Shown piece after piece: positions 97 to 6,979 of a stretch of DNA of 7,063 nucleotides. The stretch is from PVC group bacterium (GTDB taxonomy: Bacteria > GCA-001730085 > JADFSZ01), in the NCBI GenBank assembly GCA_022560555.1, contig JADFSZ010000091.1, positions 1 through 7,063 on the forward strand. The letters run 5' to 3'. Numbering within the stretch: the stretch's first letter is position 1; each line of letters opens with the position of its first letter. The position numbers and the translations under genes are program-made. Below the pieces are notes generated by a model that was given only the letters and a program-made list of their open reading frames with translations, ran no database searches and was not told the DNA's origin.

Positions 97-2103
97 TTAC
101 GCTCCCATCAACAATGACTGCATTTTACGAATTTCATCTCTAATGTCAGCCGCTTCTTCAAAATCTAACTTTCGCGCGGCCGCTTTCATGGCTTCTTCCA
201 TCTCGATAATTTCGCTGGCTAATTCCTCTTGGTTCAAACCTTGAGTCATCAGATCGTGTTTTCTGCTTTTCCGCTTTTTTCCCTTTTTGCTTTTTTGAAC
301 AAGGTCCTCGATCCCCATTAAATCACGAATCTCATTCACAACGGTGCGAGGTGTAATCCCCATTTTTTGATTGTAGGCAAATTGTACTTTTCTTCGTCGC
401 TCCGTTTCCTGGACAGCCTGTTGAATGGATTTCGTAAAACGATCAGCGTACAAAATCACTTGGCCATGAATATTTCTGGCCGCACGACCCATGGTTTGAA
501 TGAGAGCACGCTCATTTCTCAAGAACCCTTCCTTGTCAGCGTCAAGAATGGCAACAAGGGATACTTCCGGCAAATCCAAACCCTCACGCAGCAGGTTCAC
601 ACCGACAAGACAGTCGTATTTCCCTTTTCGAAGATCCCTTAAAATCATCGAGCGCTCAAGCGTTTTTACCTCCGAATGAAGGTATTGACTCCGGATTTTT
701 ATTTCACGAAGATACTCATCCAAATCCTCTGCCATTCGCTTGGTGAGTGTTGTAACCAGCGTTCGTTCTTTTCTCTCGGCACGAATTCGGATTTCTTCGA
801 TAACATCATCAACCTGATTTTTAAGCGGACGAACGCTCACGCTGGGATCAAGCAAGCCTGTCGGCCGGATCACTTGTTGGACAATATTTTGACTTTCTTT
901 CATTTCATACGGACCGGGAGTTGCTGAAATACACACAAGCTGGTTAATTTTTTTTTCAAACTCTTCGAATTTCAGAGGCCGATTATCTTTCGCGGACGGC
1001 AGCCGGAACCCGTGCTCAATAAGCACTTTTTTTCGCGCTTGATCTCCTTCATACATCCCTCTTAATTGAGGAAACGTGGCGTGAGATTCATCGATAAAGA
1101 TGAGAAAATTCTTAGGAAAATAGTCAATAAGAACACTTGGGGCTTCTCCCGCGGCTCTCCCGCTCATATGCCGGGAATAATTCTCAATTCCCTTGCAGTA
1201 CCCGATCGCGTCCATCATCTCAAGATCATACTCTGTTCGTTTTCTCAATCGCTCAGCTTCAACAATCATGTTTTGGCTTTCAAAATACTTCAATTGACCG
1301 GCAAGTTCCCTCTTAATATGCTTCTTGGCCCTTTGCATTTTATCGCGCGGTAAAACATAGTGACTGGCCGGGTTTATGAGGATCTCATTTTCTTTACGAA
1401 CGACTTTTCCCGAGACGGTTTCGATCTCATATAAGCCGTCTATTTCATCTCCAAAAAGTTCAATGCGCACGGCTTTATCACTTTCGTAAGATGGAACCAC
1501 TTCGATCACATCTCCCCTAACACGAAATTTTGTCCGCATTAAATCTGTGTCGTTCCGTTCATAGTACATCCGAACCAGAGCTTCGATGATTTCTTTACGT
1601 GTGATGGATTGACCGGCTTTTAAATGCAGATTCATGCTTTTATAGTCTTCGGGTGCTCCTAATCCGTAGATACATGAGACACTCGCGACAATAATCGTAT
1701 CCGGTCTTGTGAGGACAGATCGTGTGGCACGATGACGCAATTTATCAATTTCTTCGTTTACGGACGCGTCTTTTTCAATATAAATATCCCGTTGGGGAAT
1801 GTAAGCTTCCGGCTGATAATAATCATAGTAGCTGACAAAATACTCAACGGAATTTTTAGGGAAAAATCTTTTAAATTCATTGCATAATTGAGCGGCAAGC
1901 GTTTTATTGTGTGTGATCACAAGCACGGGGCGGTTAACTTTTGCAATCAAATTGGCAACAGTAAATGTTTTTCCGGATCCGGTTACTCCTTTTAGGGTCT
2001 GTATGCGCGCGCCCTGTTCAATGCCCTTTGAGAGCTCTTTGATAACTTTGGGCTGATCTCCACAGGGTTGAAAATCCGAGGTGAGTTCAAATTTTTGAGG
2101 CAT
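97..2103 (-). CDS. uvrB: Excinuclease ABC subunit B (UvrB), full length, 668 aa
   Basis: Uninterrupted 668-aa ORF. It carries Walker A GVTGSGKTF, the YYDYYQPEAYIP beta-hairpin region, helicase motifs (FIDESH, QTMGRAARN) and a C-terminal UVR domain (LDFEEAADIRDEIRKMQ). The ATG at 2103 overlaps the upstream thioesterase ORF by 17 nt. Confidence 0.97.
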   Translation of the reverse strand: MPQKFELTSDFQPCGDQPKVIKELSKGIEQGARIQTLKGVTGSGKTFTVANLIAKVNRPVLVITHNKTLAAQLCNEFKRFFPKNSVEYFVSYYDYYQPEAYIPQRDIYIEKDASVNEEIDKLRHRATRSVLTRPDTIIVASVSCIYGLGAPEDYKSMNLHLKAGQSITRKEIIEALVRMYYERNDTDLMRTKFRVRGDVIEVVPSYESDKAVRIELFGDEIDGLYEIETVSGKVVRKENEILINPASHYVLPRDKMQRAKKHIKRELAGQLKYFESQNMIVEAERLRKRTEYDLEMMDAIGYCKGIENYSRHMSGRAAGEAPSVLIDYFPKNFLIFIDESHATFPQLRGMYEGDQARKKVLIEHGFRLPSAKDNRPLKFEEFEKKINQLVCISATPGPYEMKESQNIVQQVIRPTGLLDPSVSVRPLKNQVDDVIEEIRIRAERKERTLVTTLTKRMAEDLDEYLREIKIRSQYLHSEVKTLERSMILRDLRKGKYDCLVGVNLLREGLDLPEVSLVAILDADKEGFLRNERALIQTMGRAARNIHGQVILYADRFTKSIQQAVQETERRRKVQFAYNQKMGITPRTVVNEIRDLMGIEDLVQKSKKGKKRKSRKHDLMTQGLNQEELASEIIEMEEAMKAAARKLDFEEAADIRDEIRKMQSLLMGA

Positions 2104-2521
2104 GGAGAATCTCGGTCAATTCTTGAGGCATGCGGGTCGGTTTTCCCTCTCTGTCGCAAAAACAGTGCGCTGTCCATCCTTCGGCAATGATCGCTTTATC
2201 GCCATTCTTAGATAATTTATAAGCAAATTTTAGTGAGCTTTTACCAACATGCGTTATGCTTGAAGAAACATGAATAATGTCATCATAACAGGCGGCCTTC
2301 CGGTATTTGCAATAGACCTCAAGCACAGGAAGAAACTCTCCCTTATGTTCGAGGTCCTTATAATTCACACCTAAAGAGCGGATATGTTCCGTTCGCGCCA
2401 TTTCAAACCAGGTCATGTAATTCCCATAATACACAAACCCCATTTGATCCGTATCTTTGTATGTTACACGAATTTTAAGAGTAGTTTCACTCATGTTTCG
2501 ATTTTTTTTCATCCCTCTCAA
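2087..2521 (-). CDS. YbgC/4HBT-family acyl-CoA thioesterase (hotdog fold)
   Basis: The motif VTYKDTDQMGFVYYGNYMTWFEMARTEHIRSLG is typical of YbgC-like thioesterases and includes the catalytic Asp in DTD. The start is ambiguous: TTG at 2521, ATG at 2512 or ATG at 2494. ATG 2494 (MSETTLKIRV...) best fits family N-termini and overlaps the nnrE stop as ATGAGTGA. Confidence 0.88.
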   Translation of the reverse strand: MRGMKKNRNMSETTLKIRVTYKDTDQMGFVYYGNYMTWFEMARTEHIRSLGVNYKDLEHKGEFLPVLEVYCKYRKAACYDDIIHVSSSITHVGKSSLKFAYKLSKNGDKAIIAEGWTAHCFCDREGKPTRMPQELTEILHASKI

Positions 2522-3197
2522 TTACCCGGCGAACGACCTGAGAAGGAAACCCGATATCAGCCACGATCAGATTCCCAACATAGGGCACGGCAGGCACCTC
2601 CAGTAAATGATTTTTGGCTAATCCGAAGGTTATAGTCTCTTTGGCTTGAATGCATGGGGTGCAAATTTGCTTGTTTTTTACACAAAGTCCTGAAGGAATA
2701 TCAACGGACAAAATGGGGATTCCCGATTGATTCATGGTGTTAATAATGTTTTGAAAGGAACCGTCAAGATCACCCCGGAATCCGGTGCCAAAAATCGCAT
2801 CGATAATAAGGTGTGATTCTTTAAACATTTCTTGGGAATCTTGATTAGGCCAATTCGTGACGGATATATGCAGCGCTTCGAGAATGCGGTAATTGACGAG
2901 GGAGTCTCCGTGGAATTGATCTTTTGATGACAGAATGCATACAGTGACGTCACCGCCCAAGTGATTCAGCCACCGCGCGGCTACAAATCCGTCTCCGGCA
3001 TTATTCCCTTTACCGCATACAATGACAAATTTCTTTTTCTGACGAGATCCAGCAAGTATCCAAGCCCGTTCGGCAACAGATTTACCAGCGTGTTCCATCA
3101 GAACAAGACCGGGAATACCAATGATCTGAATGGTCACCCGGTCAATCTCTCTCATCGTTTCATTCGATACGGCTATCACGTGACTTGATTCATCCAT
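2487..3197 (-). CDS. nnrE: NAD(P)H-hydrate epimerase (YjeF N-terminal domain only)
   Basis: 236-aa ORF with the YjeF_N hallmarks LMEHAGKSV, CGKGNNAGDG, IIDAIFGTGFRG and SVDIPSG. No C-terminal carbohydrate-kinase-like dehydratase domain is attached. No SD-like sequence precedes the ATG at 3197. Confidence 0.9.
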   Translation of the reverse strand: MDESSHVIAVSNETMREIDRVTIQIIGIPGLVLMEHAGKSVAERAWILAGSRQKKKFVIVCGKGNNAGDGFVAARWLNHLGGDVTVCILSSKDQFHGDSLVNYRILEALHISVTNWPNQDSQEMFKESHLIIDAIFGTGFRGDLDGSFQNIINTMNQSGIPILSVDIPSGLCVKNKQICTPCIQAKETITFGLAKNHLLEVPAVPYVGNLIVADIGFPSQVVRRVIERDEKKSKHE

Positions 3198-3215
3198 GAA
3201 TTGAATTTATTGATG

Positions 3216-3639
3216 GGGATCAAACGAGCAGATCTATAAGCCGAGTTCTGTTATCGATGGCTATTTATCTTGTCCCGATGTTACCATCGGGATCCAGCGA
3301 CCTACCCGAAAGGATATAAGCGGGCCGCTTCCCTTCGTATTTGGTCTTGCTCCGGATGGGGTTTACCCGGCCATGATGTCACCACCATGCCGGTGCGCTC
3401 TTACCGCACCTTTTCACCCTTACCCCGAACCTCTCACAAAGCTCAGGTCATACCTACATTATGAGAGACTTGTCTTTGTGCCTGAGTGTTGTGAGAGTTT
3501 CGGGGCGGTATCGTTTCTGTGGCACTTTCCTTCTCGTTACCGAGACTGGACGTTATCCAGCATCCTGCCCTATGGAGCTCGGACTTTCCTCTATGCCGAA
3601 TATTCGGCACAGCAACCATCCGATCTGCTTTTTGATCCC
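3216..3639 (-). ncRNA. rnpB: RNase P RNA, bacterial type A (M1 RNA homologue), about 424 nt
   Basis: The minus strand contains the universally conserved blocks GAGGAAAGTCCGAGCTCCATAGGGCAGG (P4 5' strand), AGTGCCACAGAAACGATACCGCC, GGTAAGGGTGAAAAGGTGCGGTAAGAGCGCACC (P13/P14, type A), GGTAAACCCCATCCGGAGCAAGACCAAATA and ACAGAACTCGGCTTAT (P4 3' strand). All are near-identical to E. coli M1 RNA. The terminal P1 helix pairs 5' GGGAUCAAA-A-AGCAGAUC (3639..3622) with GAUCUGCU-CG-UUUGAUCCC (3241..3216). There is a long P12 stem (ccccgaaactctcacaa.../...ttgtgagaggttcgggg). Local GC is higher than in the flanks. End coordinates are good to about 5 nt. Confidence 0.95.
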
Positions 3640-3653
3640 ATCAGATATGATTA

Positions 3654-4070
3654 TTAATTTTTGAATTCTAATACTTCTTCTAACGCTTCGTTGGCCAGAC
3701 GATCCGCCTCTTTGTTCTCGCTTCTCCTGACGTGGCGAAGGCTAAACTCAGGGAAATGAGTCACAAGGTTTTTTGCGATTTCAAAAAGAGGCTTTAATTT
3801 ATCATCACTGACTTTATATTGACCTAACAATTGTTTAACCACCAGTTCACTGTCAACATAGGCTTCAACACGTTTGGCTCTCAGGCCCAGAGCTTCCTGC
3901 AGGCCTAAAATCAACGCAGTATATTCCGCAACATTGTTGGTTGTTATACCAATAAATTTCTTTATTTCTTTTATAAGTTCATCCGGAGGCACGAGTATCC
4001 TGATACCCACCGCCGCGTACCCGGGATTTCCCCGTGATGCTCCGTCCGTATACACTCGTAAATGGTTCAT
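3654..4070 (-). CDS. Ribonuclease HI family protein (archaeal/Rv2228c-N-domain type, RVT_3-like), 138 aa
   Basis: DEDD catalytic pattern: VYTDGASRGNPG (Asp), NNVAEYTALI (Glu), YVDSELV (Asp), NKEADRLAN (Asp). The size and the absence of a basic protrusion fit the short archaeal-type RNase HI. The ATG directly abuts the upstream stop (TAAATG at 4073..4068). Confidence 0.85.
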   Translation of the reverse strand: MNHLRVYTDGASRGNPGYAAVGIRILVPPDELIKEIKKFIGITTNNVAEYTALILGLQEALGLRAKRVEAYVDSELVVKQLLGQYKVSDDKLKPLFEIAKNLVTHFPEFSLRHVRRSENKEADRLANEALEEVLEFKN

Positions 4071-4805
4071 TTATGTGGTCTCGCTTATTTTTTCCTTACA
4101 ATAAAGCATGCGGCTGCAATCTGGGCACATTTGAACGCCCAGGCCGGACATCGTTTCATTGATCAGTTGGGGTGAGAGACGCATGTGACATCCACCGCAT
4201 TCTTGACCTTCGATACTTACAATGGCCGTGTCTTTTGTTTTGATCAAAATCTTTTCATACTGATCGAGTGTCTTAGTGTCAACGGCCTTGAGATGCTCTT
4301 CACGCTTAGCCATCCAATCCTTGATTTGGGCATCCAGTTTAGCCACTTCTTCATGGCACTCTTTTTCTTTAGCATTTAAATCATCTTCCTGAGATTTAAG
4401 ATCTTTTTTCTTCTTATCGATACTATTTTCGGAATTTTCAATTTGTTCCATTTTATTTAAAATTTCTTCCTCGAGAAGAGAATTTTTATCTTTAGCGGTA
4501 TTGATTTCATTCTGCAAAGCTTTATAGGACTCATTATCTTTCACTTGGGTGAGTTGCCCTTCGTGTTTTTTTATACCCTCAAGATTCGTGGCGACTTCTT
4601 GTTCCAAGGCATTTTTAGAGACTTGAAGGTCCTTGAATTTTCCCACATATTCATTCAGATCCACCAAAAGGGCCTTCTTTAACACTTGCAGCCGTGTCAC
4701 TTCCCTTGGATATGTATCTCTTTTTGTCCTCAGCTCCAGCATCTTTAAGTCCAGTTCGCTCAGAGACAAGAGAGCTATTATGGTGTCTTTCATAGAACCT
4801 TCCAC
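4071..4805 (-). CDS. COG1579-type coiled-coil / C4 zinc-ribbon protein (HP0958/FlgZ-like, putative nucleic-acid binding)
   Basis: A long, heptad-rich, K/E/L/Q-dominated region of about 190 aa is followed by a CxxC...CxxC ribbon (CGGCHMRL ... CPDCSRML, 4116..4199). The ORF-track start is GTG 4805. ATG 4793 (MKDTII...) is more likely, since it is preceded by GGTGGAAGG as an SD. Confidence 0.85.
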   Translation of the reverse strand: MEGSMKDTIIALLSLSELDLKMLELRTKRDTYPREVTRLQVLKKALLVDLNEYVGKFKDLQVSKNALEQEVATNLEGIKKHEGQLTQVKDNESYKALQNEINTAKDKNSLLEEEILNKMEQIENSENSIDKKKKDLKSQEDDLNAKEKECHEEVAKLDAQIKDWMAKREEHLKAVDTKTLDQYEKILIKTKDTAIVSIEGQECGGCHMRLSPQLINETMSGLGVQMCPDCSRMLYCKEKISETT

Positions 4806-4831
4806 CTAGCAGGGATTTTAATCATTTATAA

Positions 4832-4848
4832 TGTGTCTTAGAGACACA
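4832..4848. promoter_or_regulatory. Perfect inverted repeat TGTGTCT-N3-AGACACA at about +3 to +19 of the predicted transcript (operator or 5' stem-loop)
   Basis: tgtgtct (4832..4838) and agacaca (4842..4848) are exact reverse complements with a 3-nt spacer. The element lies 9 nt downstream of the -10 hexamer on the minus strand. Confidence 0.4.
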
Positions 4849-4856
4849 GGGGTGAG

Positions 4857-4885
4857 AGTATAGCATCAGCTATGGGGAAAGTCAA
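4857..4885 (-). promoter_or_regulatory. Sigma70-type promoter with extended -10, driving the zinc-ribbon / RNase HI / rnpB unit
   Basis: The minus strand reads TTGACT (4885..4880), a 17-nt spacer ending in TGc, then TATACT (4862..4857). That is 5/6 at -35, 5/6 at -10, optimal spacing and a TGn extended -10. It sits in the only sizeable intergenic gap (4806..4946), about 57 nt upstream of ATG 4793. Confidence 0.6.
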
Positions 4886-4946
4886 ACAGTGTAAAGCTCC
4901 TAAAAATGAAGGACTTAGTGCGGTAAAGAACCCTTTGAAGGGGGCA

Positions 4947-6104
4947 TCAGGATTTCGCCCTCTTTTTAATTTTTGTGAAGGCGATGGCCACTTCAACCTT
5001 GTCTTTGGACATAACCCGGCTCTTTCGAACCACACGCCCAATGGCACTCACCAGAGATTTCTTTTCAAACGAATCGATATTCAACTCCACATCACGGCCA
5101 AAAGGAGGTTCTTTGGTACTTTCGAACAAAACACCATGAGAGCATATGTTTTTTACGATTCCGAACATTTCAATCGTTTCGCCTCCCTGGGAGTAAGAGT
5201 ACAAAATAGGGACCTCGAGATTTCTTCTTGTAGATTCTCTTTTTTCAACAAGATATTGGCGGATTTGATTTTTTCCGCCTCTTTTAGCGACATAGAGGGC
5301 CATATCAGATCGTTTAATCAGTTCTTTGGCGGCAATACCATCTTCGGGAAATGTTGCAACACCTCCGCTGACGGTTAACCCTGTTTGATTCGAAAAAAGC
5401 ATTAACTGACTTCGGCAAAAACGTTCGATTTTGTCTTTGAGACGCTTTCCGAGCTCAATGGCGGCTGATTTTTGAGTTTCGCGCATGACCATAACAAACT
5501 CTTCGCCCGCATAACGCATAATCATATCTTTACCTCTCACGTTCATACGTAACACGCTGCCGATCTTCTTTAACGCGTTATCCCCCTCTTGATGTCCAAA
5601 TGTGTCATTATACTTCTTAAAATTATCCACATCAAAAAAGAGGAGGCTGAGGTTCGTATTATGTTTATGCGCTTCCTGAATTTGTTTCTCAAGATAAATA
5701 TCTAAATAGCGTCGATTAAACAATCCGGTCAGAGGATCTTTAAAAGCGGATTCGAGAACACTCACAAAAACATCCTGTTCAATCACTTTCGGATTTTTGA
5801 TAAGCTTCGTGATATTGAGAAAGTAATCAAAGATGGCCACACGCAGTCCGACATCACGCATAAGGCTTTCCGACATATCTCTTTTGTGTTCTAAAATATT
5901 TTCCCAATGAAGCAGAGCTTCCTCACCGGGCAAATCAATATTCACTAAAAAGCGAAAAATATCTTTAAGATCACATCCTCGCGAAAGGCTCGGTTGATTT
6001 TTAAGCCGGTTGACCAGCTCTTCACATTCTTTGGATGGGTTTTCATGGAGCATGCGTATGAGATCTTTACGACTATGAACTGCATCAATGCCGACGATAT
6101 CCAT
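4947..6104 (-). CDS. Diguanylate cyclase (GGDEF domain with AGEEF variant and intact RxxD I-site) fused to a C-terminal PilZ domain; unassigned helical N-terminal domain of about 120 aa
   Basis: The GGDEF domain spans about aa 122-282 (DPLTGLFNRR, FFDVDNFKKYNDTFGHQEGD, RGKD-MIMRY-AGEEF, SGGVA, ADMALY-like SDMALYVAKRGGKN). AGEEF is encoded at 5496..5510 (gcg ggc gaa gag ttt) and RGKD at 5526..5537. The PilZ domain spans about aa 288-378 (4971..5243), with KRESTRR (RxxxR) and, 26 aa later, NICSHG in place of (D/N)xSxxG. A strong SD, AAGGAG, lies 6 nt upstream of the ATG. Confidence 0.9.
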   Translation of the reverse strand: MDIVGIDAVHSRKDLIRMLHENPSKECEELVNRLKNQPSLSRGCDLKDIFRFLVNIDLPGEEALLHWENILEHKRDMSESLMRDVGLRVAIFDYFLNITKLIKNPKVIEQDVFVSVLESAFKDPLTGLFNRRYLDIYLEKQIQEAHKHNTNLSLLFFDVDNFKKYNDTFGHQEGDNALKKIGSVLRMNVRGKDMIMRYAGEEFVMVMRETQKSAAIELGKRLKDKIERFCRSQLMLFSNQTGLTVSGGVATFPEDGIAAKELIKRSDMALYVAKRGGKNQIRQYLVEKRESTRRNLEVPILYSYSQGGETIEMFGIVKNICSHGVLFESTKEPPFGRDVELNIDSFEKKSLVSAIGRVVRKSRVMSKDKVEVAIAFTKIKKRAKS

Positions 6105-6110
6105 ACCGGT

Positions 6111-6116
6111 CTCCTT
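6111..6116 (-). promoter_or_regulatory. Shine-Dalgarno AAGGAG for the GGDEF-PilZ gene
   Basis: The minus strand reads TAA ggcctaga AAGGAG accggt ATG. The flhG stop is at 6125..6127 and the ATG at 6104..6102. Confidence 0.8.
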
Positions 6117-6124
6117 TCTAGGCC

Positions 6125-6979
6125 TTAGCTCACAATGGAAGCCAGGCGATACAAAGCTTTCTTCATATTTTCTTCATAACCCGCGTTCGATTTAAGATCC
6201 CTTTTCTGGCCGCTGATTTTATAGGCCATGGTTCTGACACATTCTGTCGCGCGTGAATACGGAAATTCCAAATAAAACGGCCGCTGCCGTTTGACAGATT
6301 TGGGCACGGCTTCATCCCGCACAATGAAACCTTCCATAGAAATACCGCGATTGAGAAACTGTTTCGTGATGGTGATCATTTTTTGTCCAAGTTTTTGAGC
6401 TTCTTTTTCATTTTTAACCATATTGAGGACAAGCTTAATATTGACATCATTATTATGCGCTAACAGGGTCTTGATCATGGCATAGGCGTCAATGGTGGAT
6501 GTAGGCTCCGGTGTGCATACGACAAAAACGTCATCAGCGGCCAGATTAAAATTAATGGCATTTTTCCCGAGGCCTGCTTCTGTATCAATGAGCACATAAT
6601 CAACATGTTTACGGACCTTTTCAAAGTGTTCCAAAAATATTTTTTGCTGAAGCGTATCGAGACTCGTCAGTTCCTCAATACCCGAACTTGCGGGAAGAAT
6701 ATTGAGTCCAAGTGGCCCTTCGATCATGATATCCAGAACATCTTTTTGTCCGCTTATCACGTGATGAATATTGTATTGGGGCGTTAATCCAAAAAGAACA
6801 TCCACATTCGCGAGCCCAAGATCGGCGTCAATGAGAACCACGCGTTTCCCCAATTGACATAAAGCTAATCCCAGGTTCACGGCTAAATTAGTTTTTCCGA
6901 CTCCCCCTTTTCCGCTTGTAATCGCGATCACTTTCACTTGATGAACCGGCTTTCTCGACATACGACTGTATAAACCCAT
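6125..6979 (-). CDS. flhG: MinD/ParA-family P-loop ATPase of the FlhG/FleN (YlxH) type, flagellar number/placement regulator
   Basis: VKVIAITSGKGGVGKTNLAVNLGLALCQLGKRVVLIDADLGLANVDVLFGLTP closely resembles FleN/FlhG. The deviant Walker A SGKGGVGKT is at 6890..6916. The C-terminal KKALYRLASIVS is a plausible amphipathic membrane-targeting helix. The start is uncertain: ATG 6979 or ATG 6961. The same frame stays open to the window edge at 7063 with no ATG/GTG/TTG, so the gene could be 5'-truncated here. Confidence 0.85.
   Translation of the reverse strand: MGLYSRMSRKPVHQVKVIAITSGKGGVGKTNLAVNLGLALCQLGKRVVLIDADLGLANVDVLFGLTPQYNIHHVISGQKDVLDIMIEGPLGLNILPASSGIEELTSLDTLQQKIFLEHFEKVRKHVDYVLIDTEAGLGKNAINFNLAADDVFVVCTPEPTSTIDAYAMIKTLLAHNNDVNIKLVLNMVKNEKEAQKLGQKMITITKQFLNRGISMEGFIVRDEAVPKSVKRQRPFYLEFPYSRATECVRTMAYKISGQKRDLKSNAGYEENMKKALYRLASIVS

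Follow-up and report, generated by a model that had tools for sequence, protein, structure and literature searches.

RNase P RNA has been much studied, yet the expression of its gene, rnpB, is largely obscure beyond a few model bacteria, and the textbook picture is that of a stand-alone gene with its own promoter. The rnpB gene of Escherichia coli, encoding M1 RNA, is of this kind: it has a promoter and terminators to itself, and its transcript keeps a primary 5′ end and is trimmed at the 3′ end. In mitochondria of Saccharomyces cerevisiae, RPM1 is located between the genes for tRNA-fMet and tRNA-Pro. In those of Schizosaccharomyces pombe, rnpB is flanked by tRNA-Ala and tRNA-Glu and is excised from a polycistronic transcript (PMC6097661). 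Here, we analyse an rnpB gene embedded among protein-coding genes in contig JADFSZ010000091.1, from a metagenome-assembled genome (MAG) of a PVC-group bacterium; the whole stretch of 7,063 bp is called the window hereafter. In the window, rnpB follows a gene of the COG1579/DUF164 family and a gene for RNase HI (rnhA), and an earlier note on this DNA had proposed that it is transcribed as a cistron of their mRNA and then excised.

The closest described bacterial order is that of Borrelia burgdorferi B31, dnaG-rpoD(BB_0712)-BB_0713(zf-RING_7)-rnpB-BB_0714 (Pereira et al. 2011, PMC3372290, Fig. 3B; Petroni et al. 2023, PMC10319736), in which BB_0713 ends at 750789, rnpB spans 750817-751163 and BB_0714 starts at 751191 (PMC10319736 supplementary data). 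Pereira et al. noted the RNase P RNA gene only in Borrelia, coloured as 'unique'; dnaG, rpoD, tRNA-Met and rnhA are drawn beside flgZ homologues, and the text treats NIF3, rpoD and dnaG (PMC3372290). Co-occurrence of COG0327 and COG1579 has also been reported (PMC8469502), and mycobacteria have the operon Rv2231c-Rv2230c(NIF3)-Rv2229c(COG1579)-Rv2228c(RNase H/CobC) (PMC7466739). This source, together with the Protein Data Bank (PDB) relatives 5Y05 and 3HST, documents the adjacency of Rv2229c and Rv2228c mentioned in the earlier note. Among COG1579 proteins, MSMEG_4306 came down with RNA polymerase (RNAP) in pull-downs and co-purified with DNA (PMC7092591), ML1638 is positioned on the β′ subunit of RNAP in an AlphaFold3 model (bioRxiv 10.64898/2026.07.15.738315), and HP0958 (FlgZ) and CT398 (CdsZ) interact with sigma-54. 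This evidence points to a tie of the family to RNAP and sigma factors, not to RNase P.

A full-length rnpB gene between rnhA and nnrE

All genes of the window are on the minus strand. The features on which the analysis turns are the following.

4857..4885, minus strand: sigma-70-type promoter-like site TTGACT-17-(TGc)TATACT, a 10/12 match with a TG extension and a position weight matrix (PWM) score of 16.0
4071..4805, minus strand: COG1579/DUF164 gene of the CT398/HP0958/MSMEG_4306 family (PF24481 2e-12, PF02591 1.2e-8)
3654..4070, minus strand: rnhA, RNase HI of the RVT_3 type (PF13456 1e-21, also PF00075)
3643..3653, minus strand: AU-rich spacer of 11 nt, UAAUCAUAUCU, from the rnhA stop to the rnpB closing helix, by sequence and fold
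3631..3642, minus strand: 5′ strand of the outer P1 extension, GAUGGGAUCAAA, paired with 3212..3224 in the minimum free energy (MFE) and centroid structures
3221..3631, minus strand: rnpB, full-length class-A RNase P RNA (RF00010, 308.5 bits, E=5e-101, model positions 1-367)
3212..3224, minus strand: 3′ strand of the outer P1 extension, UUUGAUCC(C)CAUC with C3215 bulged, from sequence and fold
3211..3198, minus strand: AU-rich spacer between the closing helix and nnrE (CAAUAAAUUCAAUUC), from sequence

The RF00010 search fixed rnpB at 3631..3221, bearing out the proposal that a complete gene lies among protein genes; the match is not truncated and exceeds the gathering score of 100 bits. Conserved regions CR-I (GAGGAAAGUCC) and CR-V (ACAGAAnnnGGCUUA) are present as GAGGAAAGTCCGAGCTCC and ACAGAACTCGGCTTA, the fold has a z-score of -9.3, and the MFE and centroid structures are each closed by P1 with its outer extension, which joins the 5′ end to the 3′ end. 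Judged by its sequence, this is an ordinary class-A RNase P RNA.

The gene is tightly packed. Depending on whether the end of the closing helix or that of the Rfam match is taken, its 5′ end is 11-22 nt past the RNase HI stop and its 3′ end 14-23 nt ahead of nnrE. The geometry read by the earlier note is seen in the sequence: a GGG at 3639, the P1 start, lies 14 nt past the RNase HI stop (TAA, 3656..3654, followed by a second TAA to give the double stop TAATAA), and the nnrE ATG (3197), with no purine-rich Shine-Dalgarno sequence (SD) ahead of it, is 18 nt past 3216. The outer 9 bp that it assigned to P1, GGGAUCAAA (3639-3631) with UUUGAUCCC (3224-3216), do pair. A 1x2 internal loop separates this stem from the 8-bp canonical P1 (3629-3622 / 3227-3234), and in the MFE fold of 3665..3195 it grows to 12 bp, ending at G3642-C3212 with C3215 bulged. 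Outer stem and P1 thus form a near-continuous closing helix of ~20 bp, with 3642/3212 as the outermost pair. The duplex energy of the outer extension is -17.0 kcal/mol, against a cross-locus control mean of -7.2 (sd 3.7).

A 99%-related contig (L204, ENA ERZ23486734) has the same gene layout, including the order of nnrE, a thioesterase gene and uvrB, and is 100% identical at both rnpB junctions. Its rnpB is nearly or fully identical to that of the window, except for a variable insertion of ~60 nt in the P12 region (about 3499..3435), the sole part that differs, by indels and substitutions. Among the relatives available for the outer stem, L204 thus has no variation at the junctions, and L205 and L206 have wider gaps.

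The two upstream proteins have the features of their families. The COG1579 protein consists of an N-terminal coiled-coil hairpin and a C-terminal C4 zinc ribbon of the form CxxC-x(18-26)-CxxC, in ~240 aa; its four cysteines (C203, C206, C227 and C230) are invariant across 39 homologues, and its PDB relatives are 4ILO (5.7e-24), 3NA7 and 5Y05. Its open reading frame (ORF) was called mechanically from GTG 4805. Translation probably begins instead at ATG 4793, where an SD-like GGAAGG lies 6 nt upstream and the product has 240 aa, the same as in the closest homologues, P0001 and P0002. RNase HI belongs to the RVT_3/type-2 group, with LC9, LC11, the Halobacterium enzyme, the Rv2228c N-domain and ST0753 as relatives and PDB matches to 3U3G (6e-25), 3HST (2e-22), 4H8K and 4E19. 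It has the RNase H fold, and its DEDD tetrad (D9, E49, D73 and D123) is invariant in the alignment of homologues. The COG1579 stop adjoins the RNase HI start (TAAATG, spacer 0 nt), a junction already remarked on from the sequence.

rnpB follows COG1579 and RNase HI genes in many phyla

As a k-mer homologue probe, the zinc-ribbon protein gave five matches only, and RNase HI was taken as the probe instead; an exact-sequence look-up of the window's RNase HI returned no match. We scanned one genome per GTDB species with the RNase HI alignment and retained the 80 best loci, which cover a very wide range of phyla. In 31 out of these 80 loci, a motif scan and an nhmmer profile located rnpB right behind RNase HI and in the same orientation; in none was it upstream or on the opposite strand. 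The chance of all 31 being downstream and on the same strand is about 2e-19. Rfam confirmed 29 of the 31 at the gathering score. The rnpB of L062, cut by a contig end, was detected by nhmmer only, with no Rfam report. In L080 (Elusimicrobia), the gene behind COG1579-RNase HI (6521-7299) was likewise detected by nhmmer only, in two pieces ~300 nt apart and below the Rfam gathering score; a large insertion or divergence of the RNA may be the reason.

About half of the 80 loci have a COG1579-type ORF ahead of RNase HI, and all 39 aligned ORFs of this type match both PF24481 and PF02591. Downstream rnpB was present in 25 out of 40 loci with COG1579 upstream and in 6 out of 40 without it (p=2.4e-5); counting Pfam-verified COG1579 only, the contrast is 23/37 vs 8/43 (p=8.5e-5). 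The complete order COG1579-rnhA-rnpB, on one strand and with short spacers, is also found in L001 and in 23-25 genome loci. One of these orders is in an Omnitrophota MAG, whose zinc-ribbon protein is 35% identical to that of the window and whose rnpB begins 9 nt past RNase HI. Linked loci come from Omnitrophota, Nitrospirota, Desulfobacterota-type deltaproteobacteria, Planctomycetota, Actinomycetota, Clostridia, Saccharibacteria, Latescibacterota, Eisenbacteria, Elusimicrobia, Margulisiibacteriota, Bdellovibrionota and Dormibacteraceae. The COG1579-rnhA-rnpB order recurs in at least a dozen bacterial phyla. In 14 or 15 loci, COG1579-rnhA has no rnpB nearby, consistently so in Acidobacteriota.

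The gap between the RNase HI stop and rnpB has a median of 31 nt. In 6 out of 30 loci the RNase HI ORF, with its end called mechanically, finishes inside rnpB, the stop lying 2-71 nt within the Rfam match (L039 3223-3293; L029 1312-1377; L018 6414-6429; L005 6203-6214; L013; L026). In such loci, the 5′ helices of rnpB would double as code for the C-terminal tail of RNase HI.

A second sample was anchored on rnpB itself. Metagenome contigs were scanned for the CR-I motif GAGGAAAGTCCGRRCTCC, a query blind to the genes nearby, and 80 loci were collected. Of these, 78 contain a real rnpB, 57 of them with at least 1 kb upstream. COG1579 and/or RNase HI were found upstream on the same strand in 18 of the 57 (32%) and never on the opposite strand; against a chance expectation of ~6e-4 per locus, the binomial p is about 1e-44. 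Neither protein was upstream in the other 39. The linked loci divide as follows.

COG1579 directly abutting rnpB (7-85 nt): 8 loci
COG1579, RNase HI, rnpB: 5 loci
COG1579, another gene, rnpB: 3 loci
RNase HI only upstream of rnpB: 2 loci

The enrichment beside rnpB that the earlier note wanted tabulated across genomes is thus present in many phyla and always on the same strand. Its pairing of both proteins with rnpB holds as linkage and needs revision as to the partners: the core pair is COG1579 followed by rnpB, and RNase HI is a frequent, optional insert. RNase HI as the core partner was rejected, given that COG1579 directly abutting rnpB is commoner (8 vs 5 loci).

Several loci vary the slot between COG1579 and rnpB. 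The COG1579 gene of L102 is followed by one for a 400-aa protein in which RVT_3 RNase H is joined to His_Phos_1 (minus strand, 1305-2504), and rnpB lies 42 nt behind the latter; since this is the Rv2228c architecture together with rnpB, the actinobacterial version of the cluster also ends in rnpB. L105 (minus strand, 6979-8421) has an RNB-domain exoribonuclease (RNase II type, PF00773 and PF18614) in the position taken elsewhere by RNase HI, that is, a different RNase in the same place. In L126 (minus strand, 5311-6612), a serine recombinase gene, apparently a mobile-element interruption, separates COG1579 from rnpB. L046 (Bdellovibrionota, 5986-6975) encodes an RNase HI joined to a GNAT acetyltransferase domain, and here too rnpB still follows. 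Downstream of rnpB, the genes vary by lineage, and the nnrE order is not conserved beyond L204.

The linked genes form the tail of an extended rpoD operon

Rfam and ARAGORN identified a tRNA(CAU) gene, often followed by tRNA-Val(CAC), 7-50 nt ahead of COG1579 and in the same orientation in at least 16 loci from Omnitrophota, Nitrospirota, deltaproteobacteria, Elusimicrobia, Acidobacteriota and Proteobacteria. The tRNA positions are L007 5072-5277, L013 5041-5211, L029 12-174, L055 4904-5249, L062 2245-2520, L018 3916-4107 and L080 4593-5017; a single tRNA(CAU) is present in L009, L014, L017, L028, L037, L043, L052, L064, L067 and L077. L018 (Eisenbacteria) has the same tRNA pair, with no verified COG1579 ORF identified.

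ARAGORN labels the tRNA(CAU) as Met. An initiator identity is excluded by its G1:C72 pair and GGGCCC acceptor stem. A BLAST comparison with E. coli tRNAs was uninformative, the best matches being tRNA-Lys and tRNA-Arg at 76%. The sequence resembles E. coli ileX, a tRNA-Ile(CAU) gene that lies downstream of rpsU-dnaG-rpoD on the same strand (L083 3048-5674). On the basis of this synteny, of the resemblance and of tRNA identity rules, the tRNA is probably tRNA-Ile2, or ileX-like.

The gene for the primary sigma-70 factor (rpoD, regions 1.1 to 4) is located just upstream of the tRNA in 10 genome loci (L013 3360-4970; L014 2887-4611; L028 3248-5065; L037 3263-5071; L052, L055, L062, L064, L077 and L080), and rpoD also heads five of the rnpB-anchored metagenome loci (L107, L124, L127, L144 and L136). 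In the rnpB-anchored sample, rpoD was upstream only where COG1579 was present. The ancestral order is (dnaG-)rpoD, tRNA(CAU), [tRNA-Val(CAC)], COG1579, [rnhA], rnpB, with rnpB ending the tail of an extended rpoD operon. The three-gene cluster described in the earlier note is the end of a longer one. No tRNA was found in the window, and neither rpoD nor tRNA(CAU) is directly upstream of its COG1579 gene: the window keeps only the cluster tail, and a GGDEF-PilZ gene and the strong promoter replace the rpoD/tRNA head.

Tightly spaced rnpB genes lack a promoter signature

On the gene strand, the top PWM score of the whole window belongs to the site at 4885..4857, which lies in the sole sizeable intergenic gap (4946..4806), ahead of the COG1579 gene. 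It is the same site that had been singled out from the sequence as the one strong promoter, and we presume it to be the promoter of a COG1579-rnhA-rnpB(-nnrE...) unit. Within 150 nt upstream of rnpB, neither the scan for sigma-70-type motifs nor the PWM detected a promoter-like site, as the earlier note had held. The match of the motif scan nearest to rnpB is a weak ATAACA-18-TATACT (9/12) inside rnhA, at 3947..3918. Closer to the 5′ end of rnpB there are two -10-like hexamers, neither with a -35.

3670-3665, minus strand: TAGAAT, PWM 6.1, the best near the rnpB 5′ end, with five of six consensus positions
3655-3650, minus strand: AATAAT, PWM 4.0, overlapping the double stop, 7 nt upstream of G3642

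The best site near rnpB ranks 61st of 7035 positions, and the region just upstream of the gene is at the 0.476 control percentile among equal-sized segments of the same contig. No terminator-like hairpin was found after rnpB, nor any between rnpB and nnrE, again in line with the earlier reading. By prediction, with a test validated on 43 free-standing rnpB genes, this rnpB has no promoter of its own and no terminator that separates it from its neighbours.

In that test, the best -35/-10 pair placed to start transcription at the rnpB 5′ end was ranked against equal-sized segments tiled across the locus, and a promoter-like site was called at a control percentile of 0.1 or below. The results by class were as follows.

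Free-standing rnpB (positive control): 37 of 43 with a promoter-like site (86%), median percentile 0.019
Linked rnpB, gap of about 26-250 nt: 16 of 26 with a promoter-like site
Linked rnpB, gap of 25 nt or less, or overlapping (window included): 2 of 19 with a promoter-like site

The difference between free-standing and tight rnpB is significant (Fisher p=1.8e-8), and the tight class contains, besides the window, all Omnitrophota loci. Sites in the wider class include TTGATT-18-TAGAAT (L037), TCGACG-16-TATACT (L032), TTAAGA-17-TAGAAT (L063) and TGGTATAAT. Two modes are thus observed: tight, promoterless rnpB, and more loosely spaced rnpB with a promoter that overlaps the end of the upstream ORF. 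P1 extensions are equally frequent in promoter-bearing and promoterless loci.

Transcription, processing and the cause of the linkage

Read-through transcription of rnpB is likely because the gene has no recognisable promoter of its own, and it may extend into nnrE, the thioesterase gene and uvrB because no terminator intervenes. We think it probable, with considerable room for doubt, that in the window rnpB is co-transcribed from 4885..4857, as the 3′ part of a COG1579-rnhA mRNA, and then excised. Endonucleolytic cuts in the AU-rich spacers (3653..3643 and 3211..3198), with UAAUCAUAUCU as the candidate 5′ site, would free rnpB, and exonucleases would trim it to the ~20-bp helix. The folded, stable RNase P RNA would accumulate and the mRNA part would decay. 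The conserved linkage is most simply read as membership of an rpoD ('macromolecular synthesis') operon in extended form, together with lock-in, whereby an essential RNA gene relying on its neighbours' promoter could not leave them. Once a spacer widened to ~27 nt or more, rnpB could gain a promoter and, freed of this dependence, drift away from its neighbours. Lock-in, like the co-transcription, the cleavage sites and the enzymes that would act there, is what we infer from this arrangement.

Several observations weigh against excision of rnpB from a longer transcript, and most of them would favour an alternative in which a weak or non-canonical promoter within the last rnhA codons starts transcription near G3642/A3641, giving a primary 5′ end as in E. 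coli, with the tight packing a matter of compaction. Co-transcription in the window is argued from the absence of a recognisable sigma-70 signal, and the rules of a sigma-70-type scan may not be those of PVC-group or Omnitrophota bacteria. The closing helix begins at G3642, 7 nt past AATAAT, where transcription from that hexamer would start, and TAGAAT is close to consensus. The weak site at 3947..3918 could also feed rnpB. At gaps of 27-83 nt, promoters that overlap the upstream ORF are common (L037, L032, L063), and a promoter-like site is present in 13 of 17 linked genome loci with gaps of at least 27 nt, with the linkage retained. In Borrelia, the only cultured case with data, rnpB lies 27 nt past the zinc-ribbon gene and its main 5′ end is classed as a transcription start site (TSS); processed ends are found just upstream of rnpB as well, and the many internal 'TSS' calls indicate a noisy classification for an abundant RNA (PMC10319736). 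Given the promoters at wider gaps and the Borrelia TSS, co-transcription is not universal, and since promoter-bearing loci stay linked, dependence on an upstream promoter is not the sole force behind the linkage. For the window, however, we consider a promoter of its own unlikely, though with a real chance of being right: the hexamers lack both a -35 and a TG extension, AATAAT is largely a product of the TAATAA double stop, about half of the control segments score as well as this region, and many positions of the window outrank its best site. The near-consensus site at 4885..4857 also indicates that the organism uses canonical signals, and the frequency of strong sites differs sharply between free-standing and tight rnpB genes (37/43 vs 2/19). 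The idea of rnpB as an excised mRNA cistron is thus strengthened for tight loci by the comparative promoter statistics, and it does not extend to all linked ones. A variant of excision, in which the outer P1 extension acts as a processing stalk and an RNase III-type double-strand cut frees a pre-RNase P RNA as in rRNA processing, seems improbable to us. The window does have the helix for it (12 bp with one bulge, a 1x2 loop and the 8-bp P1, ~20 bp in all), with a duplex energy well under the cross-locus controls, and extensions of 8-15 bp past the Rfam ends were seen in L015, L079, L045, L018, L041, L049 and L082. However, such extensions are no commoner in tight, promoterless loci than in promoter-bearing ones, many tight loci have none (L013, L055, L029, L005, L001), L204, the sole close relative, is identical at the junction and so gives no covariation signal, and a long P1 may simply belong to the mature RNA. 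Across loci, pairing of the flanks was more stable in cis than in trans (p=2e-4), with flanks that include two terminal model pairs; because of these pairs, and because the extensions do not track promoter class, we set this result aside as support for a stalk.

Operon membership with lock-in also has to be set against a functional tie, in which RNase P RNA or rnpB is a target of the COG1579 protein, of RNase HI or of both, and the co-location serves the co-regulation of partners. As an RNAP-bound or RNA-binding factor, COG1579 might be required for transcription, folding or ribonucleoprotein assembly of rnpB, and RNase HI might clear R-loops at a gene that is structured and highly transcribed. 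Such a tie would explain why adjacency is kept in the 16 of 26 loci where rnpB apparently has its own promoter; all three pairs occur (COG1579-rnpB, rnhA-rnpB and COG1579-rnhA), and L105 has an RNB-domain exonuclease ahead of rnpB, where RNase HI would otherwise stand. Association of the COG1579 family with nucleic acid and RNAP is seen for MSMEG_4306 (PMC7092591) and in the AlphaFold3 model of ML1638, and YlxR/RnpM is a precedent of an overlooked protein linked to RNase P RNA (PMC11622646). On the other hand, no experiment connects a COG1579 protein or an RVT_3-type RNase HI with RNase P, and the known partners of HP0958 and CT398 are sigma-54, RNAP, flagellar mRNA and the type III secretion apparatus. 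With rpoD at the head of the cluster, COG1579 may serve sigma or RNAP, rnpB being merely the last gene of a housekeeping operon, and both the COG1579-rnhA loci without nearby rnpB and the 39 of 57 rnpB genes without either protein upstream speak against such a tie. A functional tie is accordingly, in our judgement, rather improbable. We regard as slightly more doubtful a general, ancestral role of COG1579/DUF164 proteins, which have no agreed molecular function and have so far been connected with sigma factors only, coupled to RNase P RNA in a stable-RNA biogenesis module on the rpoD operon; COG1579 may then be an RNAP-bound or RNA-binding factor that helps stable RNAs, among them rnpB and the tRNAs upstream, to be transcribed, folded or released, and the RVT_3-type RNase HI (in L105, the RNB exonuclease) would be an accessory nuclease. 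That the adjacency is due to chance or to a purely local rearrangement could be suspected from the lineage-specific genes downstream of rnpB and from the window's missing rpoD/tRNA head, but the strand polarity in 31 out of 31 loci and the linkage in 18 out of 57 refute it, and we give it practically no credence.

Other genes of the window and other contexts of RNase HI

The remaining genes of the window, identified by domain searches, are listed below.

6979..6125, minus strand: MinD-like (MinD/FlhG-like) ATPase
6104..4947, minus strand: GGDEF diguanylate cyclase with a C-terminal PilZ domain
2487..3197, minus strand: nnrE, NAD(P)H-hydrate epimerase (YjeF_N)
2521/2494..2087, minus strand: YbgC-type thioesterase (4HBT)
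2103..97, minus strand: uvrB (UvrB)

The GGDEF-PilZ and MinD/FlhG-like genes (4947-6979) fill the place that rpoD and the tRNA hold in relatives and are apparently unrelated to the rnpB finding. The thioesterase gene overlaps nnrE and uvrB head-to-tail, an operon-like packing. No rnpA was found on the window contig.

Another recurrent context of RNase HI has recJ directly upstream (L006, L010, L016, L047 and L056, about 4180-6400) and never rnpB nearby. It occurs in Patescibacteria, Gammaproteobacteria and Bacillota MAGs, and the identity of recJ was checked in L010 (DHH, DHHA1 and RecJ_OB domains).

Comparison with known systems

About one-third of the sampled metagenome class-A rnpB genes, and 39% of the RNase HI loci in named genomes, end a conserved COG1579(-rnhA) unit. 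The tightest of these rnpB genes are without the promoter signature of free-standing ones, which points to a widespread route in which RNase P RNA is cut out of a precursor that contains mRNA. A tRNA, RNase H and the RNase P ribozyme are thereby added to the classical 'macromolecular synthesis operon' of primase and sigma-70. For the COG1579 family, whose function is unknown and which is reported to be essential under some conditions in Mycobacterium tuberculosis (PMC8469502), the linkage is a concrete lead that can be tested.

The earlier studies of DUF164/flgZ synteny concern the same family and the same neighbours (rpoD, a CAU tRNA and rnhA), found independently here. They differ in that rnpB is not treated as a recurrent terminal member and the tRNA is the only RNA gene tabulated. 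In the openly searchable literature, we found no paper that names rnpB as a recurrent terminal member of the cluster or tightly spaced rnpB as promoterless. Prior work appears to hold only fragments of the linkage (Pereira 2011, Fig. 3B); the embedding of rnpB and its breadth appear new, and the linkage of rnpB to the tail of the rpoD operon seems undescribed in general.

The mycobacterial operon shares with the window a COG1579 gene followed directly by an RVT_3-type RNase HI, and structures of both kinds of protein are available (5Y05 for MSMEG_4306, 3HST for the Rv2228c N-domain); in contrast, its RNase H carries a fused CobC-type phosphatase, and NIF3 precedes the pair. E. coli has an RNA of the same family and keeps the rpoD...tRNA-Ile(CAU) part of the order, but has no COG1579-rnhA-rnpB tail behind ileX. 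The mitochondrial rnpB genes resemble that of the window in having no promoter of their own and in being cut out of a longer precursor, which in the window is predicted only. In mitochondria, flanking tRNAs set the ends through RNase P and tRNase Z, whereas in the window, where tRNAs do not flank the gene, the cuts would require other endonucleases; related bacterial loci have their tRNAs at the head of the unit and not, as in mitochondria, beside rnpB. Borrelia is similar in that rnpB comes right behind a COG1579/DUF164 gene on the same strand, with 27-nt spacers on both sides and without forming a separate operon. It differs from the window in having no RNase HI in between, in the rpoD gene that is still attached upstream, and in a likely promoter of rnpB itself, and its data support the looser mode, in which rnpB has its own promoter.

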